Of a stretch of 64,000 bases of DNA, positions 6,836 through 60,394 are shown one piece after another; position 1 is the first letter of the stretch; each line of letters opens with the position of its first letter. The notes below the pieces were generated by a model. That model searched no databases, was not told the DNA's origin, and saw only the letters and a program-made list of their open reading frames with translations. This stretch comes from Naegleria gruberi. Lineage: Eukaryota. A program made the translations under genes and the position numbers. The stretch lies in NCBI GenBank assembly GCA_000004985.1, contig GG738846.1, one strand, 5' to 3'.

Positions 6836-7688
6836 TCAATTACATGTAAGTGAATAGTTGGGATTTTCAATCCAATCAAACAAGTGCTCATGTGGAAAGA
6901 TGGGATTTCCACAATTTGGATTTGAGAGTGTCTCGTTTGTGGTGAGTAACATTAAATCTAGAGATGGTGTATGTTTTGGGCTTCCCATTGCATTAAAGTG
7001 AAGCACCCTAACACAAGATGTGATGCAGTTTTGATGACCAGCATATTGCAAGTGTAGTCCACATTCCATTTCATGAATCCATGCTCTATTCGTTATTCTA
7101 TCGAGAGTATTGAGCACATCCTGATCAGCCAATAGTGTCTCTCCNNNNNNNNNNNNNNNNNNNNNNNNNNNNNNNNNNNNNNNNNNNNNNNNNNTACAGA
7201 TACTCCCAGGCATAGATTAGACCATCAAAACCATGAACCAAGAAGGTATCTGCATCCAAAAACAAGAAATGTGCCAATTTATGTTGAAAGAATTCAATCA
7301 GCTTTAACTTCTTGTTGGCAGAGGCAGCACTATAATGTGTCGATTTGGCGTCAACAGACAACTCGTTCGACTCATAGAATTTCAACGAAACTCTCTCACA
7401 AGAACCAAATCTCTTCACAATACAATCGATGGTATTGGTTGAATTCATGAAAACATGTAGAGTTACATGGTGGGGAGGCGAGGGACATGATGGAAGAGCT
7501 AACAATGGAGAGGCAACCTTTTCTGAGTTTTCATAGATTACCACAACATGCATGAGATGTCCAGCTCCAGCAGCACCAGGTTGTTTTGAAGAATATTTCT
7601 GGTGCGAGTAGAGAAAATGTCTTTCCAGGAGGAATGTTATGAGAGAGAAACAGAGAATTGGCAAAATGACTTTAAATTTATAATTCAT
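6836..7688 (-). CDS. type-II-membrane/secreted protein with DXD motif (possible glycosyltransferase); interrupted by 50-N assembly gap 7145-7194
   Basis: ATG at 7688..7686, followed by an N-terminal hydrophobic anchor (KVILPILCFSLITFLL) and an LFLDADTFLV motif. The same frame continues on both sides of the gap to a stop at 6836-6838. Confidence 0.4.
7145..7194. other. assembly gap (50 N)
   Basis: Run of N. Confidence 1.
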
Positions 7689-25556: not shown

Positions 25557-25606
25557 NNNNNNNNNNNNNNNNNNNNNNNNNNNNNNNNNNNNNNNNNNNN
25601 NNNNNN
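25557..25606. other. assembly gap (50 N)
   Basis: Run of N. Confidence 1.
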
Positions 25607-27575: not shown

Positions 27576-28066
27576 AATTATTTACTCCAAAATCTTGTAA
27601 AATTTCCAAGTTCCAAACTCATCTATTATTAGATCCACTTCCATTCCAAATTTCCAACCGAAAAAAATATCTACACTCCTCATCCTCACTCCAACTGATG
27701 AAATATCACTCACCTCTTCAGTTACATTCAAAATTAATGATAATAAATCAAAATTACTTACATTGTTTTCTGTTCAAAATCTGTTGCTTGCATATAAATC
27801 GTGCTGTTTAGCACAAATTGAATTATAACAAATTACCTAATTTCTTGTGATGAATAATTTTGATGATCCGTAGCAGGTAAAATCATATAATATGAAAATA
27901 ATACAACAAACCAATTTCGAAGAATAAAATCTTTATAAATCCAACTAACAACAATAATTAAAAAATTAAGAAATTAAGAAATTTAAATACAACAAACCAA
28001 TAAACAATAAAACTCCGCCAACAATTATCGTATTAACAAATTAATGATACTATTCAATATTTAATG

Positions 28067-29235
28067 NNNNNNNNNNNNNNNNNNNNNNNNNNNNNNNNNN
28101 NNNNNNNNNNNNNNNNNNNNNNNNNNNNNNNNNNNNNNNNNNNNNNNNNNNNNNNNNNNNNNNNNNNNNNNNNNNNNNNNNNNNNNNNNNNNNNNNNNNN
28201 NNNNNNNNNNNNNNNNNNNNNNNNNNNNNNNNNNNNNNNNNNNNNNNNNNNNNNNNNNNNNNNNNNNNNNNNNNNNNNNNNNNNNNNNNNNNNNNNNNNN
28301 NNNNNNNNNNNNNNNNNNNNNNNNNNNNNNNNNNNNNNNNNNNNNNNNNNNNNNNNNNNNNNNNNNNNNNNNNNNNNNNNNNNNNNNNNNNNNNNNNNNN
28401 NNNNNNNNNNNNNNNNNNNNNNNNNNNNNNNNNNNNNNNNNNNNNNNNNNNNNNNNNNNNNNNNNNNNNNNNNNNNNNNNNNNNNNNNNNNNNNNNNNNN
28501 NNNNNNNNNNNNNNNNNNNNNNNNNNNNNNNNNNNNNNNNNNNNNNNNNNNNNNNNNNNNNNNNNNNNNNNNNNNNNNNNNNNNNNNNNNNNNNNNNNNN
28601 NNNNNNNNNNNNNNNNNNNNNNNNNNNNNNNNNNNNNNNNNNNNNNNNNNNNNNNNNNNNNNNNNNNNNNNNNNNNNNNNNNNNNNNNNNNNNNNNNNNN
28701 NNNNNNNNNNNNNNNNNNNNNNNNNNNNNNNNNNNNNNNNNNNNNNNNNNNNNNNNNNNNNNNNNNNNNNNNNNNNNNNNNNNNNNNNNNNNNNNNNNNN
28801 NNNNNNNNNNNNNNNNNNNNNNNNNNNNNNNNNNNNNNNNNNNNNNNNNNNNNNNNNNNNNNNNNNNNNNNNNNNNNNNNNNNNNNNNNNNNNNNNNNNN
28901 NNNNNNNNNNNNNNNNNNNNNNNNNNNNNNNNNNNNNNNNNNNNNNNNNNNNNNNNNNNNNNNNNNNNNNNNNNNNNNNNNNNNNNNNNNNNNNNNNNNN
29001 NNNNNNNNNNNNNNNNNNNNNNNNNNNNNNNNNNNNNNNNNNNNNNNNNNNNNNNNNNNNNNNNNNNNNNNNNNNNNNNNNNNNNNNNNNNNNNNNNNNN
29101 NNNNNNNNNNNNNNNNNNNNNNNNNNNNNNNNNNNNNNNNNNNNNNNNNNNNNNNNNNNNNNNNNNNNNNNNNNNNNNNNNNNNNNNNNNNNNNNNNNNN
29201 NNNNNNNNNNNNNNNNNNNNNNNNNNNNNNNNNNN
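28067..29235. other. assembly gap (1169 N)
   Basis: Run of N. The six-frame ORFs spanning it are artefacts. Confidence 1.
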
Positions 29236-29236
29236 T

Positions 29237-29728
29237 TATCAGAAAGTGGTTGGAGAAAAGAAAGCAACACCAAACTTTCATATTTGTACTGAGTTAGTCA
29301 ATTCTTGTAGAATGTACGGCCCTCTTGGTGTAAATTCTGCTTTTATTGGAGAAGGACTCAATTTCACACTCTCAAAGACTTACGTTTGTTCAAATTCTGC
29401 TCGATATTCAATCATGTACTTTGATATGTGCCAATTATGTGATTTAATGGATTTAAATGAACCTCTTATTGCCTCTGAATGTATAGTTGGTCACTACGTT
29501 GTAAGAAAGGAATTAGATTGTATCAAGGATATCAAAACGAACGAAGTTTTCAAAGTGGCATCTTTCTCAAAAGATTTTAATGAGATTACCTTAATTTCCA
29601 ACACCACCAATAAGACAAGGGAGATTAGTAGAAGTGAAGCATTTGAAATGCTCCCATGTGTTGTTGTCAAACTCCCTGATGAAGAGAAATATATTCCTGT
29701 GCATTATTATGCATATCAATACTTTTAA
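29237..29728 (+). CDS. 3' part of a hypothetical protein gene truncated by the assembly gap
   Basis: The frame is open from the gap edge to TAA at 29726-29728 (163 codons). An internal ATG at 29311 (MYGPLGV…) could instead be the start of a 139-aa protein. Confidence 0.3.
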   Translation, partial: YQKVVGEKKATPNFHICTELVNSCRMYGPLGVNSAFIGEGLNFTLSKTYVCSNSARYSIMYFDMCQLCDLMDLNEPLIASECIVGHYVVRKELDCIKDIKTNEVFKVASFSKDFNEITLISNTTNKTREISRSEAFEMLPCVVVKLPDEEKYIPVHYYAYQYF

Positions 29729-31139: not shown

Positions 31140-33119
31140 AGAAGTAATTTCATTAGAATAATCCCCTTTAATATAGGTAAAGGTCCTGTTGTTATACTTG
31201 TAGGTTGTATCAGTATATTAAATTTAGTAATCATGATGGCTTGATATTGATGCCTAGGCCAAAATACTTAATAATAGGTTCATAGATTTGTTGGAACACT
31301 ATGGGAACCAATTGAATTATTTCACTTAATCATTGGTTCTAAAAGATTTTCTAGACAATGGATGAAAGTACAACGTTTCTTTTTCAAGAATGATGATAAG
31401 GACACTAGAAATTATGATCAAGTTAAGAAGAAGGTAATGAGGTTAGAAAAAGACACCAAGCTTCAATTGCAAAACTTAACATTGGCATAAACTGGACTGC
31501 AATTGAAAATTACTGAATCCTACCCTATTAACGAAGAGTACATTAGTATTTATAATAAGGTTTCAATAACCGAAGAAGAGTTTCAAAAAACAATACTACT
31601 AAGATTAATAAATATATTTAAATATATCAACAACTCCAAAAAACAACACCAAGAAGAGCAACAACACAAACAAGAAGACCACGGAAACTGAACAAGAAGA
31701 AGAATTTGAAAATTTAGTTCTTAGAAAATATTGGCGAATATTCCAATGCAAGAATTAAGGTTGGAGTGGTACAACAACAATAGATAGAAACTCTCTGATA
31801 ATTCAAAAAAAGTAGAGATACTTTCTCAACCGCATCTTCTTATGTGTTTATCATTTGTTTGAGTGGTGAAGGATAGTAAATTATCAAATCTAAAGTGCAG
31901 GTAAATGAAAAAAAAGTAGAGATACTTTCTCGATCAAATCGTGTCATCCTTGTCCAGGGACCATGCTAATCTTCTCTGTATCGTTTATCCAATTTTCTAG
32001 CGTCCCTCGAGGGGACTTATCAATATAGGATTTGGTCGATGACTAAAAGTTGAACAAGAAAATATAGTAGTTTTTATTGTGGTTTTGAAAAATGACCTTT
32101 AATTTAATTAGTAAAAATATATTGGAAAGAGAGTGGCTACTTTCTTCTGGTACTATTAAATCACTAATAAACACAATATTTATTATCAGTTTTTCATTAT
32201 TTTGTGTTTTGGCTTGGAGCCAAACCTTGATTGATTCACTCCTTCAAGATTGATCAAACTCATTGCGAACAAGATATTAAAATATTAAATTCTTATTGTT
32301 TCTTTTAATTTCTTTCACCTTAAATCTAACAATTAACCTCATTTCCATAAACATCACTATGATCAAATTAAATTTCAAAGATAACCAACTTGTTCAACAT
32401 CTACACATTCTAGTGATCACACTCATATCAATTAATCCATTTTTCATTTTCAAATTTTTTACTTTCCAAAGTTTCCCAACAAAAATGTCAAAACGTAATA
32501 GGAGTAGTTTATAAGCTGAACCTAAGGTGCCAACTCAAAAGACTTACAATAAAACAAATAATCATAAAGGCCAATATAATAGCAACAGGCGGCAGTCACA
32601 TTAAGGATAAAGCAGGATACAGCATTGTGACAGACAGGGAAAACCTTCAAATCAGGCATCATATGCCCAAAATGCTGAACTACAAGCTTATCCATAAAGC
32701 TAATAAAGAAACTGGCTTCAAACTATGAATGGAGCAAAGATCTTAACAAATATGTAAGCATTTTGTAACAGCCATTTTTTCAATCAAGTGAAGATACTCT
32801 ATTGTCTTTTAGTTTTACAACGTGATATTTCTTTAGATGCACAAGTAGCTCATGCTCTCACAAACGAGATGAAAATCTCTCTTCCCTTCTACAACTCTCA
32901 ACTTTGAGATGTTTGATTTAATCAGCGAAAAACAACGAGTTCCAATCTTATTAGTGTGTGAGTGAAGATTATAATATTGGTGAATGAAAGTGAAATTTCC
33001 AAATATTCAACTTGACACTTCACTTGGCCCAACTATACTATTAAACAGCGTCTATCTTTTTGTGGCGTTCAATTTTAAAAACAATAACAACTTTATTTTT
33101 CATATTATAAAATTATAAT

Positions 33120-43600: not shown

Positions 43601-46229
43601 ATGAAAGAACATGATATTGAACAATTTATTGAATGGTCCCACAACATTGGAGCCTTCAAACATGAAAATATTGACTTGAAATTCATCTCCTCCGAGTGTG
43701 GTATCGGAGGTATTCTAACATCAGACATTCAAGCCTCTGAAGATGATCAAGTGGATTTATTATCTGTTCCTTTGGAAAATTGTTTAAATGTTAGGAATAT
43801 GAATAGGGAATTTAGAGATTTAATATCGGAATTGAAATTAATTGCTGATGGAAATAATGATAAGAATGAAGAACTTGCTTCTCAGTGGAAGGGAACAAAC
43901 ATGTTTGAAAATGGATTAATTGTTTTCTACATGTTTTTAATTTATGAGTTACATGTTGAGAAGGAGAAGAGTACACACTTTCCATATTTGAATTTATTAC
44001 CAAGGGAATTTACTACAGCTCTTTATTTTGATGAAGATGAAATGGCTGCATTGAGATCTACCAATTTGTACAAATCTGTGCAGAGTATTAGACAAAATTT
44101 GAAGCAAATTTACGAAACGAAAGTGGAATATTTAATGAACAAGTATCCACAAAAGTTTGATAGACAAGTGTTTAGTTATGAGAATTTCATGTGGGCTTTT
44201 TCTGCTGTTTGGTCAAGAGTTTTTCCAATTGAATATCCTGCAGAGAATGGAGAAGGTGTGGAAATTGTTCCAACATTATTGCCAACAGTTGACATTTTGA
44301 ATCACAAATTTAATGCCAAGATTACATATTTCACAGGATCTGACAGAAGATTCTACTTGAAAACAAGAGAATCTCTCAAAAGCGGAGACTATGTCTGCAA
44401 CAATTATGGAGCAAAGAGTAATGATTCATTCTTATTGAGTTATGGATTTGTCATTCCAAATAATTCTGAAGACACTCTCTATGTTCAATTTGGTATTTCT
44501 GATGATGGCAATGAAGAATTGGTTCAATTCAAGAAAAAGTATTTGGAAGACAATTCTCTCAAGTAAGTTTTATAACATCTTTATCTTGATAATATTCCAA
44601 TAGTCTTGGATTTTATCTCAAAAAACAACAACTGCCAGAAGACATGCTAGATTCCATTCGTATCTGTATGATGACCGAAGATGATTTTTATCTTGCCAAA
44701 CAATCAACAATCTCTCAACACAGAGAACAATCTAAGGATTCTGTCTACAGATTCAGTGTAAAGAATGAATTCAAAATGCTTCACACACTGAGGTCATTGT
44801 TCATATCAAAGAGACGTCTCTTCCCAACCACTATTGAAGAAGATGAAGAAGAGTTGAGTGAAGAAACCAACTTTAACATGCAAAATATTCTCATTTACAT
44901 AATTGGACAAAAGAAGATTATTGAAAATGCCTTGAAATGCATTGATGAAAAACTCTCTACTTTGCTTGGAACCTATACCAAACTTGTGGACAATAATAAT
45001 CATCAGGAAAATATTCTCCAAACCATGAAGAATATCTTTATTGAAAATAGTGGAAAATTATCTGTGGAAATGAGACCAGAATTGAATTCTTTCCATGCCA
45101 TTTCCAAAGAATCCATCTCAAAAGGTGAAATAGTAATGATTGTCAAATCAGAGGAATTAATAGATGTGGATAATGCTCTTGATTCCCCGTTTGGAGAATT
45201 CTACACTGAGGCAAGAGAGGAGGATCTCAGTGCCAATCTCGATGATGAAATGGCTGTCATGTTTTACATTATGTTTGAAATGTTCTCCTCTCCAAATTCA
45301 CCTCTCAAGTCCAATAATCACAAAAAGTTTTTCAATCTCCTTCTCAAGCATTACAATTTCCAAGAAACTCCATTCCTCTCCGAAAAACTTCAAGATGAGC
45401 TGAGTGGAACCAATACCCTTGATTTGATTCAGAGAACAAGAGATGGACTTTCTGAAGTTTTCGAGGAGATTAAGAGTGCCCTCATACAGTCTGGTGTAAG
45501 TTTTCATTCTCTAATTTTTTACTGAAATTTATATTTTCACAGTTGCAAGATGAGGAAAATGTAATGACCTTTGAAAACTTTCTAGTTGCCTATTCAGTAT
45601 TTGATTTGTTCGCTGTTGGATCAGAGACTGTATTACCAATACCAGCAATTTCACAATTAGGCAGCTTTTTGGTTGAGTTTGATGATGGAAATCTTGTGGT
45701 TAAAAGTTTGATTGACATTCCTAAAGATAAGATTATTACCTTCTCTGCCCTTTCACTCACAAAACCAATCGAAGACTTACTCATGTACAACATTTATCCA
45801 ATTGATTATGAATTGGCCTTGCCTAATGTAAAACATGCCATTGGTATTGATTTGGAATCTTTAGAATCTCTCATTACACAACAAAAGCTTGACATTTTGA
45901 ATTTTTTGAACAATTTATCCTTCACTCACTATTTGACAAGAGGTAGAAAGTGTAGCCTTCTTCCAATCCAATTAGGAGTTTTATTTACTACAGATGAGAT
46001 TGCACTTTCAAACCTTCTCAATCAAAAAAAGATTGAAATTAACATGTTTGATTCGTCAGTCATGGAGAATGTGAATCACGTCATTAGTGCAATGGTTGAA
46101 AACTTTGCAAGTGCCTTCTCAGAGAATGAGGAAGCAGTAGAAGAAATCAGAACACTGTCAAGTATAGAACAGAATGCAAAACTCTTCTTTCCTCACTTCT
46201 TTCAGAATAAAAACCTTCAATTTTATTAA
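43601..46229 (+). CDS. SET-domain protein-lysine methyltransferase (SETD3/Rubisco-LSMT-like), 3 exons (43601..44562, 44604..45495, 45543..46229)
   Basis: ATG at 43601. SET motifs …LPTVDILNHKFNAKITYF… and GDYVCNNYGAKSNDSFLLSYGFV. Intron 1 is 44563..44603 (41 nt, GTAAGT…CCAATAG, phase 2). Intron 2 is 45496..45542 (47 nt, GTAAGT…TTTTCACAG, phase 0). Both join three track ORFs in frame. TAA at 46227-46229. Confidence 0.6.
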
Positions 46230-48708
46230 ATTCTAATAAGGACAATCCATTCTTTTCATTATTATTGGAAGTGCTTAAATTTTGTAAAACGCACTTGACA
46301 TGCTTCATGGTTGGTCTTTCAGCCCAGTCCTTTTTCAATAAATTCAAAACCAAATCAATAGCAATTGGATTGACTTCCTTCTCCACAAGCTCAGCCCTAA
46401 TGTTATTATAGGCCAATTCATAATTTTTCAAAATTGCATCAGACATGAAATAGGAAGTACTTTCCAATCGAACCTTTGTACGGAATGTCAATAGATTGTA
46501 CAATAAAACTCCAAAAGAAAAACTATCTGTAGCCCTCAAATTCTCTCTAGACATTTCGGCTTTTGATTTCAATTCAGGAGAAATTGTTGGTAATGAACCC
46601 AAATAGAGAGCATGTCTTCTCATTTGAAAGTCTGGACTGTCTCTTGTAATCTTGATTACATCTTGTCTTGTCGATTGCAAGTAACCAAAATCTGCAATCT
46701 TGACACATTTAGAAATGCAAGACGGATCTAAGAGAACATTTTCCACCTTAATATCTCTGTGAACCAAATCTAACTGGTGCAAGTAATTAATTGCATCTGC
46801 AATTTGATAGGCAATCTTGAAAGTATCTGGGAGTGATTCATCACCCTCAACTTCTTCATGATAAAAGATCAAACTAGTCAGTGTATCATAAAAAGGCATA
46901 ACTATATGACAATAGGTTTCTTTGTCTGTCTCACTATTACAAAAACCATCAAGGTATGGAGTGAGATGTTTGTGGGAGAGCGATTTGATTTGGGAAGTGT
47001 GTTGGAAGAACTCGTCAAGCTCTGCATTGGTAATTTTCATGTGTTTGATTGCTACAGTTCGATTATCAGTTTTGGATATGTACTTGTGCAGAATACCTTC
47101 TGCTCCACGCCCAATCTCCTCTACGAGTGTGAAATGTTCTAGAATTTTTTGATTAGTCTCGATATAGGTTTCCTCAATAATTGGAGTTGTATTGGTTGTA
47201 GGTTTCTTCTTTTTTCCAATTTTAATGGTGTTAAATTTGAGTTTACCACCATCTTCCAACTCTATATTATTAATACTATTTACAGTACCAACTCGGTGTA
47301 GAATGGTATAATCTTTACAAGTAAAGATATTTCTAATTGAAGTGTTGCTGAGCTTGAGTGATTCCACAATGTGTGGAGAAATTGGTTGTGGAAAGTTTGT
47401 AGAGATATTACTTCGCCACAGCTGATGGTTATTATTACTGCCCCAAGAATAGATCAATCCACTGATTGTCCTAACCACAGTATGACTATCCCCTGTATCT
47501 ATGGAATGAATCTTCTCCTCTCCAAATAGCTTTTTTTGAAGCTGTACAGGTTCGAATAATTGCTTGTTAATGGAAGGGCTGAAACCTAATTGACCCATGT
47601 GATTTCCTCCAAAAGCATAGAGTTCATTATTGAGGGTAAGAACTATAGAGAAATTGGAGCCTGCGGAAATCTTGCTAATTTGTGATTGAATTCCTTTCAC
47701 TCTATTCAATTGTAAAATGAATTCCTCATGTTTTCCAACTCCTGTTTGGCCAAATGAGTTATGGCCAAACGAATACAATAGTCCTTCAGTAGAGACTGCC
47801 AAAAAATGACCATATCCAACACTAACAGATCTAATAGTAACACTTCCATAATCTCTCTCTGCCTTTTTAATATCTAAACTACCTTCCAAAATTTGAGTTT
47901 CAAAATTTTCAGTGAATGTGTAATAAATCTGACCATCAATAGTCAACCACACTGCTAAACCTCCTTTGTATTGGAAATCTGCTACATTTTCTTTCAATAT
48001 ACTAGCCACATTAGAATTAATTAAATCTTGAATATCTATGGCCTTTCCATCGTTCCACACGTAGAATTCTCCCAATAATTTATCTACAATAAACAATATT
48101 CTTAATTGTGAATTTGTTTCTCTATTTACATTTGAAATGACTTGTTCATTTTCCTCGAATCTATTTGCACGATATGGTGCAGATCGTACAATGTATCTAT
48201 TTAATGAAGTGGAATCTGTCGAAATATCCTCCTCTTCGTCCAATTCTAAAAGTTTTAGCTTTTTCTTCAATTCTGTCCTAATACTTTCTTCCTCATTCAT
48301 GGTCCAAACCATAAAGTCTTCATAAATTTCAAAATCTGAATTCTTTAACAATAGTAATTGATTTGTCTTGCTTCTGACCATTAACAAGTCATCATCGGAT
48401 TGACCTTGAAAACATGATATTTCAAGGTCTTGTGTAAGAAAACTATCTGGTAATGTATTGTCCTCCAATACGAGGATTGAATTGTTTCCACGCCCTGTTA
48501 TCATCAAGGAAGGCCTTTTTACATTATCGTCATCATTAGTACTAGTTGAGAAAGAATGCTGATGAACATTTGATTTGGCCATCGAATAGAAAACCTCTTC
48601 ATGTTGATTACCATGTATCACTAGTACAAATAATTTGAATATCAGCAATATGAGGAGGCAAGCCTTCAATAATATTATCAATGTTGGTGATGAGGTGAAT
48701 GCTTTCAT
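46147..48708 (-). CDS. transmembrane RCC1-repeat protein kinase
   Basis: The first ATG is at 48708..48706; the track start is TTG. Signal/TM MKAFTSSPTLIILLKACLLILLIFKLFVLVI. RCC1-like repeats (GYGHFLAVSTEGLLYSFGHNSFGQTG…; YAFGGNHMGQLG…; YSWGSNNNHQLW). Kinase motifs IGRGAEGILHKY, VAIKHM, HRDIKVENVLLD, IADFG. The 3' end overlaps the convergent SET gene by 83 nt. Confidence 0.55.
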   Translation of the reverse strand: MKAFTSSPTLIILLKACLLILLIFKLFVLVIHGNQHEEVFYSMAKSNVHQHSFSTSTNDDDNVKRPSLMITGRGNNSILVLEDNTLPDSFLTQDLEISCFQGQSDDDLLMVRSKTNQLLLLKNSDFEIYEDFMVWTMNEEESIRTELKKKLKLLELDEEEDISTDSTSLNRYIVRSAPYRANRFEENEQVISNVNRETNSQLRILFIVDKLLGEFYVWNDGKAIDIQDLINSNVASILKENVADFQYKGGLAVWLTIDGQIYYTFTENFETQILEGSLDIKKAERDYGSVTIRSVSVGYGHFLAVSTEGLLYSFGHNSFGQTGVGKHEEFILQLNRVKGIQSQISKISAGSNFSIVLTLNNELYAFGGNHMGQLGFSPSINKQLFEPVQLQKKLFGEEKIHSIDTGDSHTVVRTISGLIYSWGSNNNHQLWRSNISTNFPQPISPHIVESLKLSNTSIRNIFTCKDYTILHRVGTVNSINNIELEDGGKLKFNTIKIGKKKKPTTNTTPIIEETYIETNQKILEHFTLVEEIGRGAEGILHKYISKTDNRTVAIKHMKITNAELDEFFQHTSQIKSLSHKHLTPYLDGFCNSETDKETYCHIVMPFYDTLTSLIFYHEEVEGDESLPDTFKIAYQIADAINYLHQLDLVHRDIKVENVLLDPSCISKCVKIADFGYLQSTRQDVIKITRDSPDFQMRRHALYLGSLPTISPELKSKAEMSRENLRATDSFSFGVLLYNLLTFRTKVRLESTSYFMSDAILKNYELAYNNIRAELVEKEVNPIAIDLVLNLLKKDWAERPTMKHVKCVLQNLSTSNNNEKNGLSLLEFNKIEGFYSERSEERRVLHSVLYLTVF

Positions 48709-50776: not shown

Positions 50777-50989
50777 ATGTCACAAATCTATCACATGTTA
50801 ATTCATCAAGAACACCAAATTAATTCTTTAAAATGTGATTTAATCTTCAAAATCCTCCCAGTCTTCAAAATTGATCGGCGATTTAATAAGGCTTGCAAAC
50901 TTGTCAATAATTTCAAAATAAGCCTTTTTCAAGTCAAAGTCAGAAGAATTAACATTTCTTTCTTTTCACAAAAGACACACAATTCATAA
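50777..50989 (+). CDS. short ORF of conserved-N-terminus family, subfamily D (MSQIYHMLIHQEHQINSLKCDL…)
   Basis: ATG at 50777. The 5' ~60 nt is homologous to the 24203/3009/60237 copies. The ORF runs into the left TIR of the adjacent element. Confidence 0.25.
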   Translation: MSQIYHMLIHQEHQINSLKCDLIFKILPVFKIDRRFNKACKLVNNFKISLFQVKVRRINISFFSQKTHNS

Positions 50990-57915: not shown

Positions 57916-59007
57916 ATGAACAACAATAACGATCAAACTCTGTTGCCTTTCGAAGGAGGAGGAGGTTCTACAAGTAATGGTGGTTTGGAGTTTCAAGGTT
58001 AGTTGGATTCGTGTTGGAAAAAATTTATATAAATTTATTATTATATCGGATCATCAATTCTAGAATTTGGAACTCATCAACAATTAACCTTTCCTTCTGA
58101 TCCGATGGGATCAATGACTCTTGATGAAAATCCAATGATGAGTAATATTCCATCAAGTGGTGCCACTGCTGGTACTAGTACTGGTAGTAATCAACAACAA
58201 CAAAATACAATAGTATTGAGTGGAGATGATTCTGATGATGAAATGACCAATGTGGATTATTCACAATATAGTTTTTGGAACCTTGAATATTATATTCCAT
58301 TCTTTAATGTGAATACTAATGAAGTACTCAGGAGAATAACCAAACCATATCTCTTTTTTTTGAACACTGACGAATCTTTTGTATCATACACAAAGAGAGG
58401 AAAGAGACAATCTGATCTGTGGGGACCATTTTGGATTATCACAACACTTATTGTTGTAATTGTCATGACTAGTAATATTGGACACTTTTTTAATTTAAAT
58501 GCTATCGGAAAAGAGTTGGAGGGAGATTTTCAACAATCTGGATCCAATAATAATACATCAGGAAATGAAGCTTTCCGTCGACCAACAAGTGATTTATTAG
58601 AATGGACAACTGACTTTTCACTCATTTCTGTAGGAGCAACAGTGTTTTATGCATTTTCTATGGTAGTTCCTGCTCTTTTATGGGTTGCTATGAAATATAA
58701 GGGTGTAACTGTTAGTCTTGTTGAAACCATATGTGTCTATGGATATTCTTTCGCAGTAGTTATACCACCACTTGTTTTATGCATGTTCAATATTACTTGG
58801 TTGAGATGGATTTTGATTATGGGAGGATTTTTATATGCCAGTGTTTTTATAGTATTTGGTTTATTCAAAGAATGGAAGAAGGTTGTCACTGGTCCACAAG
58901 ATAATATTTTCCTTCTTGTTTTTGCAGCTTTTATTGTACTTTCTCACCTCATTTTGGCTGTCTTTGTCAAGTTTTACTTTTACACATTTTCAGTTGATTT
59001 GAAATAA
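57916..59007 (+). CDS. Yip1-domain (YIPF) family membrane protein, 2 exons (57916..57997, 58064..59007)
   Basis: ATG at 57916 (aaaaaaATG). The intron is 57998..58063 (66 nt, GTTAGT…CAATTCTAG, phase 1) and joins in frame. The conserved Yip1 motifs are DLWGPFW and VYGYSF, with 5 TM helices. TAA at 59005-59007. Confidence 0.55.
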
Positions 59008-59436
59008 ATTTTGTAATATTTAATTGAAATATGGTTTATCATTGAAATTGTAATATATTTATTATAACTAAACTGAATAGGAATAGTAGTGTTTTTTCAA
59101 TAATGAAATTTTTATTCTACAAGTGCATCATTATACTTTGTTGGGAATTAGTTGTTGATTGCTAAAGGAAGAAGCAATGGTTTATCCTTTGGAATAAAGT
59201 GAGGAATAGTTGACGTTTTGTTCAAGTCAATGTTGATTTTAAAAAAATACAAACACCTTACAACAATTCCACAACACCACTACCCAAATAAGAAAGTATT
59301 ATAAAAATAAAACCTGAACTTCAATGACGAAATCAGAATTGGATAATTGAAATAAACTAAATCACAAAAAAGAGAAAACCAATAAACAAAATAAGCCACA
59401 TATAAAACCACCATTGAAACAAAGTTTTGCTTGTTG

Positions 59437-59660
59437 ATGGTAAAATATTTGTTGTGGTGGTTTTAATAATTAATAACGAGGGGATGGAAAATCCGTCATC
59501 CAAATCCCACACAACTCCTCCACTAAAATCCAGAATCCACAATATCTGGGATTTGGATTAAGGTTATTCCATCCCCTCTTAACAACAAATCACATTTAAA
59601 AGAATTAATTTGATTTTCTTGATGAGATAAAATGTGGTTGATTTGATGTGTCATTTTTGA
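59437..59660. repeat. repeat copy carrying a MITE-like insertion (paralog of 60126-60240)
   Basis: GGTAAAATATTTGTTGTGGT…TTTTAATAATTAA[insertion]CAACAAATCACATT…GATGAGATAAAATGTGGTTGATTTGAT is shared with 60126-60240. Confidence 0.7.
59478..59578. mobile_element. 101-bp palindromic MITE-like insertion with 12-bp perfect TIRs (GAGGGGATGGAA / TTCCATCCCCTC) and nested inverted repeat (TCCAAATCCCA / TGGGATTTGGA)
   Basis: It is present in the 59437-59660 copy and absent from the otherwise colinear paralog at 60126-60240 (AATAATTAACAACAAAT). It is flanked by a TTAA/TAAC direct-repeat context. The exact target-site duplication is ambiguous because of local TAA repeats. Confidence 0.6.
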
Positions 59661-59958
59661 AATTTTCTTTAATATTGGTAAAATCTTAATCCAAACTTTA
59701 CAGTAAAGTCAGACTTGGAAATTATAGTCAAAGTTTAATTGTGGTAGTATAATAGTGTTTCTTCTATTACAAGAACAATAATAAAAGGTAGAGAAATTTA
59801 AATTTTAAAAATAAAATATAGAAAGAAATATGATTATTCTGAGTTAATGGATATCTATTTGCAAGAAATTATCTTAACCATCAATCATTACAAAGATCTT
59901 ACCATTAATGCAATCACAAACCATCATCAAGATCCAGATTATGATCATATTGATTTCA

Positions 59959-60237
59959 TTAAGCAAAATATTGTAAAAGAATTGAAGTTTTAATGGATCT
60001 GCAATTAAAATTGGTGCTGGAAGTGTATATTGTAAAAGGTTGAGATATTTGTGTTAAATATTGCAACCTTCTTACAACCACCAAAAAGCAAGACAAAAGA
60101 AAGCGAATTCTTTTTCTTTTTGTTGTTGAGGGTAAAATATTTGTTGTGGTAGTTTTAATAATTAACAACAAATCACATTGAAAAGAATTAATTTGATTTT
60201 CTTGATGAGATAAAATGTGGTTGATTTGATAAATCAT
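59959..60237 (-). CDS. short ORF of conserved-N-terminus family, subfamily D (MIYQINHILSHQENQINSFQCDL…)
   Basis: ATG at 60237..60235. The 5' ~60 nt is homologous to the 50777 copy. The ORF extends into the repeat at 60126-60240. Confidence 0.25.
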   Translation of the reverse strand: MIYQINHILSHQENQINSFQCDLLLIIKTTTTNILPSTTKRKRIRFLLSCFLVVVRRLQYLTQISQPFTIYTSSTNFNCRSIKTSILLQYFA

Positions 60238-60240
60238 TTT
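60126..60240. repeat. repeat copy without insertion (empty-site paralog of 59437-59660)
   Basis: See the paired feature 59437-59660. Confidence 0.7.
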
Positions 60241-60394
60241 CTTTGATTTCAGTTGATAAAGCTTGTTTTTGGTATTACCGTTTTTGTGAATAATATATAT
60301 TTATTTTGAAAATTACAATTCTTTTCCTCTAAAGTTGTTGATTGAGAATAATTGTTTGATCTGAAAGTTAGTTATGATGCACTATCTTGATTTT

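Follow-up and report, generated by a model that had tools for sequence, protein, structure and literature searches.

A 101-bp palindromic MITE-like element, most likely of hAT origin, in one of two paralogous repeats of Naegleria gruberi

Two paralogous copies of a non-coding repeat lie in the same intergenic spacer of Naegleria gruberi, and one of them contains a compact palindrome that the other lacks. What is this palindrome, how did it come to be there, and did it arrive before or after the repeat was duplicated? The original prediction, made on the 64,000-nucleotide stretch of DNA that was analysed here (hereafter the window), regarded the two repeats as the filled and empty sites of a MITE-like element with a piggyBac-like target preference. 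DNA transposons are known from Naegleria genomes (PMC6125883, PMC12344493), and a literature search found no description of MITEs or hAT elements of Naegleria. We report herein that the palindrome has the anatomy of a small non-autonomous transposon with terminal inverted repeats (TIRs). It is probably a MITE-like element of the cut-and-paste type, with the hAT superfamily as its most likely source, that was inserted after a local duplication of the repeat.

The pairing of a filled with an empty repeat was borne out by a repeat search and by MAFFT alignment, with copy 2 appearing as a clean empty site. The two copies are colinear, with ~97% identity across 112 bp of core matches. Their left blocks (59425-59477 and 60117-60169) pair at 91% across 53 nt and their right blocks (59579-59657 and 60162-60240) at 95% across 79 nt in the repeat search and MAFFT alignment, while the blastn cores showed 95% identity over 43 bp and 98.6% over 69 bp. 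The colinearity that had been predicted was therefore retained, but the boundaries, previously placed at 59437-59660 and 60126-60240, had to be moved to those given in Table 1. The start-to-start spacing is 692 bp for the left blocks and 583 bp for the right blocks, from which it follows that the extra DNA in copy 1 amounts to 109 bp, not 101 bp. An element of 101 bp does exist, as had been claimed, but the extra DNA comprises this element plus an 8-bp target-site duplication. Both ends of the element fall, to the exact base, on the boundaries of the indel seen when the paralogues are aligned.

The host repeat is treated here as non-coding, low-copy DNA. Its core folded no better than shuffled sequences (z near 0), it matched no family in Rfam, and a 48-aa ORF located between the two copies had no real homologue among 1.84 billion representatives. 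An intron-like identity (GTAAAAT...YAG) was considered for the repeat and found no support. Directly to the left of the element lies a separate 63-bp hairpin (59403-59465) with perfect 11-bp arms (TAAAACCACCA/TGGTGGTTTTA), which overlaps the left half of repeat copy 1; its Rfam match to miR-430 is below threshold (34.2 bits versus a gathering score of 47.3).

Table 1. Coordinates of the element, its target site, the host repeats and the neighbouring genes in the window
Feature	Position	Strand	Basis or remark
MITE-like element, 101 bp, palindromic, non-coding	59478..59578	.	Inserted block in the paralogue alignment
Left TIR, GAGGGGATGGAA	59478..59489	+	Perfect over 12 bp
Right TIR, TTCCATCCCCTC on the + strand	59567..59578	-	Perfect over 12 bp
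Inner inverted-repeat arm, ATCCAAATCCCA	59498..59509	+	Perfect 12-bp pair; holds one of the six AATCC/GGATT motifs
Inner inverted-repeat arm, TGGGATTTGGAT	59547..59558	-	Perfect 12-bp pair
Left copy of target-site duplication, TTAATAAC	59470..59477	.	One C-to-T difference from the empty site
Right copy of target-site duplication, TTAACAAC	59579..59586	.	8 bp
Unoccupied target, TTAACAAC	60162..60169	.	Single copy in the paralogous repeat, without excision footprint
Host repeat copy 1 (filled)	59425..59657	+	124-bp repeat, split by element and duplication; blastn, MAFFT
Host repeat copy 2 (empty)	60117..60240	+	124 bp; blastn, MAFFT
Third copy of host-repeat core	50790..50855	-	Partial, roughly 80% identity; blastn, three-way alignment
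YIPF gene, 300-aa Yip1-domain ORF	58105-59007	+	Pfam
PAS-domain class III adenylate cyclase, last exon	ends 60395	-	Pfam

The nature of the insertion is best read from its junctions. The filled copy has the structure AATAA-TTAATAAC-element-TTAACAAC-AAATCAC, and the empty copy AATAA-TTAACAAC-AAATCAC. Thus, rather than the blunt junction AATAATTAA/CAACAAAT that had been proposed, 8 bp of the form TTAAYAAC flank the element on each side and occur once at the empty site. The two copies of the duplication agree at 7 of 8 positions, and since the bases beyond these 8 bp are mismatched, the length of the duplication is exactly 8. The window contains 27 perfect inverted repeats with arms of 12 bp or more and a spacing of 30-800 bp; that of the element is the only one whose flanks form an 8-bp direct repeat with no more than one difference. 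Among 100 simulated windows of matched composition, two showed the same combination of TIRs and an 8-bp repeat (0.02 per window on average). The sole other inverted repeat of the window with 8-bp flanks that match at 7/8 positions (GCCATTGG/GCAATTGG) has 11-bp arms (TATTGATTTGG), extends over 516 bp (45845-46360), spans two long ORFs, one of them kinase/RCC1, and is probably a chance match.

The length of the duplication also bears on the piggyBac-like preference for TTAA that had been suggested. The target does include a TTAA, which adjoins the right end of the element, and MITEs derived from piggyBac are likewise small and palindromic, with AT-rich targets that contain TTAA. Nonetheless, piggyBac duplicates exactly TTAA, whereas subtraction of the 101-bp element from the 109 bp of extra DNA leaves a duplication of 8 bp, and the piggyBac reading is thereby removed. 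TTAA makes up no more than the first four bases of the AT-rich 8-bp target: the left flank reads ...TTAATAAC/GAGG and the right flank CCTC/TTAACAAC, such that TAAC, not TTAA, stands at the left end. Moreover, piggyBac elements end in CCC...GGG, and the ends here are GAGGGG...CCCCTC. It is almost certain, then, that the element is not a piggyBac-like MITE inserted at TTAA.

The body of the element agrees with the compact hairpin that had been foreseen; both the perfect 12-bp TIRs and the second, internal inverted repeat were confirmed (Table 1). TIR and inner repeat together make up arms of 32 nt that are 88% complementary and enclose a 37-nt loop, and exact matches to GAGGGGATGGAA in the 64-kb window are confined to the two TIRs of the element. 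When folded as single-stranded DNA, it reached -21.6 kcal/mol (z = -5.65), and none of 200 shuffled sequences was as stable; when folded as RNA, z was -6.6 for the + strand and -6.1 for the - strand. The pentamer AATCC/GGATT is present in six copies, against 0.3 expected from its frequency in the window, with starts at element positions 13, 26, 50 and 57 (+) and 72 and 78 (-). A count of six was reached by 9 of 2000 plain shuffles and by 50 of 2000 mirror-preserving shuffles. Stop codons interrupt four of the six reading frames, and the two open frames have only 33 codons each. In its size (101 bp, with ~800 bp as the upper bound) and its lack of coding capacity, as well as in its terminal inverted repeats (12/12 bp) and flanking target-site duplication, the element fits the generic description of a MITE. 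The label also implies a multi-copy family, a status that is unproven for this element.

The window has the base composition of AT-rich eukaryotic DNA (GC ~32%). The GC content of the element is 44.6% versus 25% in the 500-bp flanks on each side, a difference that points to foreign DNA and away from slippage at the site. Could the palindrome nevertheless be something other than a transposon, either a one-off insertion created by template switching or snap-back synthesis, or a hairpin RNA gene with only a superficial likeness to a MITE? Such origins are favored by the fact that a second copy was found in no search, whether of the window, of viral contigs or of called proteins, and by the generic miRNA-precursor models that Rfam 15 returned. 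These matches are sub-threshold (30.2 versus 83 bits, and 24.7 versus 184 bits), nothing in the element region reached a gathering score of Rfam 15, and matches of this kind are expected of any long hairpin. Snap-back synthesis would leave unexplained the 8-bp target duplication, the 37-nt loop, which is not palindromic, and a GC content 20 points above that of the surroundings. We therefore consider an origin without a transposon very improbable. Taken together, the observations describe a piece of foreign, structured DNA that was integrated by a staggered cut, and not a product of slippage or a local palindrome.

If the element is a transposon, to which superfamily does it belong? hAT elements "usually generate 8 bp TSDs" (PMC12730594), and the duplication seen here, exactly 8 bp long with both edges unambiguous, agrees with this criterion (PMC12730594, PMC3260210). 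The transposase of Hermes prefers targets of the form 5'-nTnnnnAn-3' (PMC10368747), and TTAACAAC has a T at position 2 and an A at position 7, an agreement observed at one site in an AT-rich genome. Maize Ac/Ds elements have the ends C/TAGGGATGAAA, 8-bp duplications and reiterated subterminal hexamers to which the transposase binds (PMC3260210). The 12 nt of GAGGGGATGGAA can be aligned to this Ac/Ds end with 9 matches in 11 positions and a single 1-nt gap, a likeness picked out from among known examples. Each of these three features, the exact 8-bp duplication, the fit to nTnnnnAn and the Ac/Ds-like end, is weak alone, and it is their combination that makes hAT the most likely source. Both the superfamily and mobilization in trans are inferred.

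Several details qualify this likeness. The terminal consensus of hAT elements is YARNG, with which the end of the element, GAGGG, agrees at four of five positions, the first base being G and not C or T. The element resembles Ac/Ds and miniature hAT elements in its TIR length (~11-12 bp in those elements), its short non-coding body and its exact 8-bp duplication. The subterminal repeats of Ac/Ds are AAACGG (PMC3260210), and the reiterated AATCC of the element would be their analogue. The first base is C or T in Ac/Ds but G in the element, whose host is a heterolobosean amoeba. Compared with Ds1-type and miniature hAT elements, its length of 101 bp is near the lower limit, and it consists almost wholly of one hairpin. 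No autonomous partner came to light: of the 31 window ORFs that reach 180 aa, 28 were scanned with Pfam and showed no transposase domain, the three omitted ones being located on an assembly gap.

The departure of the first base from YARNG speaks for a non-autonomous TIR transposon of another superfamily capable of 8-bp duplications, such as the Mutator-like elements (MULEs), P, Merlin, Zisupton or Novosib. Many MULE ends start with GAG or GGG, as does that of the element. On the other hand, the TIRs of MULEs are usually much longer than the 12 bp found here. A full-length Mutator element, MuDRF, was reported in N. gruberi (PMC3164196), and is thus a DNA transposon with TIRs from the very species that hosts the element, but the duplications made by MuDRF are 9 bp long (PMC3164196), while that of the element is exactly 8 bp. 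Mutator elements and MULEs as a whole are recognized by duplications of 9-11 bp, and a 9-bp reading of the flanks of the element is out of register. In addition, the TIR of the element is closer to that of Ac/Ds, and its target fits nTnnnnAn. Mutator-like elements remain the main rival to the hAT assignment, and a source in any of these other superfamilies seems unlikely.

The element may belong to a multi-copy family. No second copy was present in the 64-kb window, either in a TIR search that allowed up to two mismatches or in a blastn-short search with the element. Viral contigs gave no match in a scan for the exact TIR pair, a search with low power for N. gruberi copies; six-frame peptides of the element, compared at similarly low power with 5.8 billion proteins, met no called ORF that held a copy. 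The exact TIR pair was encountered at nine loci in metagenomes, which represent four distinct bacterial-looking palindromes, and in two metagenome-assembled genomes among prokaryotic genomes (Saprospiraceae and Gemmatimonadaceae), as a single copy in each. One of the metagenome palindromes is the same locus as that in the Saprospiraceae genome.

These bacterial palindromes (L002-L012, among them contigs from Antarctic metagenomes) have the identical 12-nt pair, GAGGGGATGGAA...TTCCATCCCCTC, and a similar range of overall lengths (87-111 bp), but their interiors, with a GC content of 41-55%, are unrelated to that of the element. As relatives of the element they were rejected, on account of these interiors and of the finding that none has an 8-bp flanking repeat; furthermore, in most of them the inverted repeat continues outward beyond the 12-mer, which is thus not their terminus. 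Since a palindromic 24-nt pattern was scanned over very large collections, the matches are regarded as coincidences. A 27-nt end, GAGGGGATGGAAGCTGAGCAAAAAAAA, is common to two groups of these loci (L003/L007 and L005/L006/L008), which may constitute one bacterial repeat family. The notion that the element is an orphan GC-rich hairpin that reached N. gruberi from an external source such as bacterial prey or a virus, and that it shares its ends with the bacterial palindromes for functional reasons, seems to us exceedingly unlikely; if it were true, the element would be a cross-domain mobile hairpin.

A MITE-like insertion of hAT type would account for the structure of the filled copy, and the direction of the event is a separate matter. 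Earlier, the presence of both states in one stretch of DNA was taken as "direct evidence of mobility", which is too strong a wording, because the comparison is between paralogous sites and not between alleles of one site. An indel cannot be polarized from two paralogues. The element might thus predate the duplication of the repeat, and copy 2 might have lost it, either by recombination between the 8-bp repeats or by an excision that left no footprint; the 8-bp direct repeats would lend themselves to microhomology-mediated deletion. The window also contains a third copy of the core of the host repeat (AAATCACATT...GATTTG, with 39 bp at 90-92% by blastn), which stops short of the target site. 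As it spans only part of the repeat to the right of the target, it cannot polarize insertion versus deletion; its presence does mean that the host repeat forms a small dispersed family of its own. This third copy, on the - strand, begins directly after the TAA stop of an upstream reading frame.

The empty site is clean, with one TTAACAAC and no footprint, and insertion after duplication is for that reason the parsimonious order, and the direction that we infer. Precise removal of the element with a single intact TTAACAAC left behind is a less common event than plain insertion, and excision of the hAT type normally leaves footprints. A loss from copy 2 therefore appears improbable. Even if it had occurred, the element would still be a transposon with a target-site duplication, and the timing alone would change.

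The following history would account for the locus. The first step would have been a local duplication of a ~124-bp non-coding repeat within the spacer that separates the convergent genes for YIPF and the PAS adenylate cyclase, and the element would next have integrated into repeat copy 1. A transposase supplied in trans would bind to the 12-bp ends, GAGGGGATGGAA, and probably also to the reiterated subterminal AATCC motifs, excise the element and insert it into a target whose two strands are cut 8 bp apart. Repair of the resulting gaps would then duplicate the 8 bp TTAACAAC.

The spacer that contains the element and the two repeats is 1.4 kb long, and there was no sign of an effect of the element on the neighboring genes. 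The insertion is, in this respect, an ordinary and routine one into intergenic DNA. The YIPF ORF of the window is the same as the N. gruberi protein listed at NCBI as "predicted protein / Protein YIPF", except for a 25-residue gap in the gene model, and its homologues in N. fowleri, N. lovaniensis and Willaertia are 59-68% identical, which identifies the window as nuclear DNA of N. gruberi. The NCBI model (264 aa) omits 25 residues (the ELEGDFQQSGSNNNTSGNEAFRRPTS region) that are in frame in the window and present in Logan protein P0001; the intron predicted there may be a mis-annotation.

Sequences from other sources were compared with the spacer and its flanking genes. A Logan contig from run ERR1078381 (L001) is ~99.5% identical to the window in the YIPF coding region and probably represents another strain of N. 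gruberi. It loses colinearity after window position 59077, 400 bp short of the element, and ends before reaching it. In the tail of this contig, a 32-bp stretch matches the reverse complement of 60291-60320 and a 40-bp stretch matches 59744-59783; the spacer may be structurally polymorphic between strains, or the contig may be chimeric. At its start, the contig has an Illumina adapter together with a snap-back copy of the beginning of the gene. An ENA contig (L013) contains the cyclase orthologue of a related Naegleria species, at ~80% DNA identity, with another gene downstream. The YIPF loci of N. lovaniensis and N. fowleri are non-syntenic downstream and have neither the host repeat nor the element, and in look-ups for other loci no record matched the exact YIPF product, the NCBI N. 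gruberi proteins, the ORFs that span the filled and empty sites or the last exon of the cyclase.

A few other features of the window are worth recording. A U6 spliceosomal snRNA gene is located at 31912-32016 on the - strand (Rfam RF00026, 76.6 bits, match to the full-length model). Runs of N mark assembly gaps at 7145-7194, 25557-25606 and 28067-29235, and the last of these is responsible for an apparent GC content of 13.5% in the bin at 28-30 kb and for spurious overlapping ORFs at 28050-29728. The segment 56402-56501 is nearly pure A+T of low complexity (3% GC) with overlapping short inverted repeats, and sits between two - strand ORFs, of which one matches the phospholipase C X domain weakly and below threshold.

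The repeat landscape of Naegleria is poorly characterized (PMC12344493), and the element is useful there as a seed for annotation. With its defined ends, a known duplication length and an empty site for comparison, it could serve as a starting point both for the annotation of a family of DNA transposons and for the hunt for a transposase in Heterolobosea. It is also a possible presence/absence marker among strains of N. gruberi.
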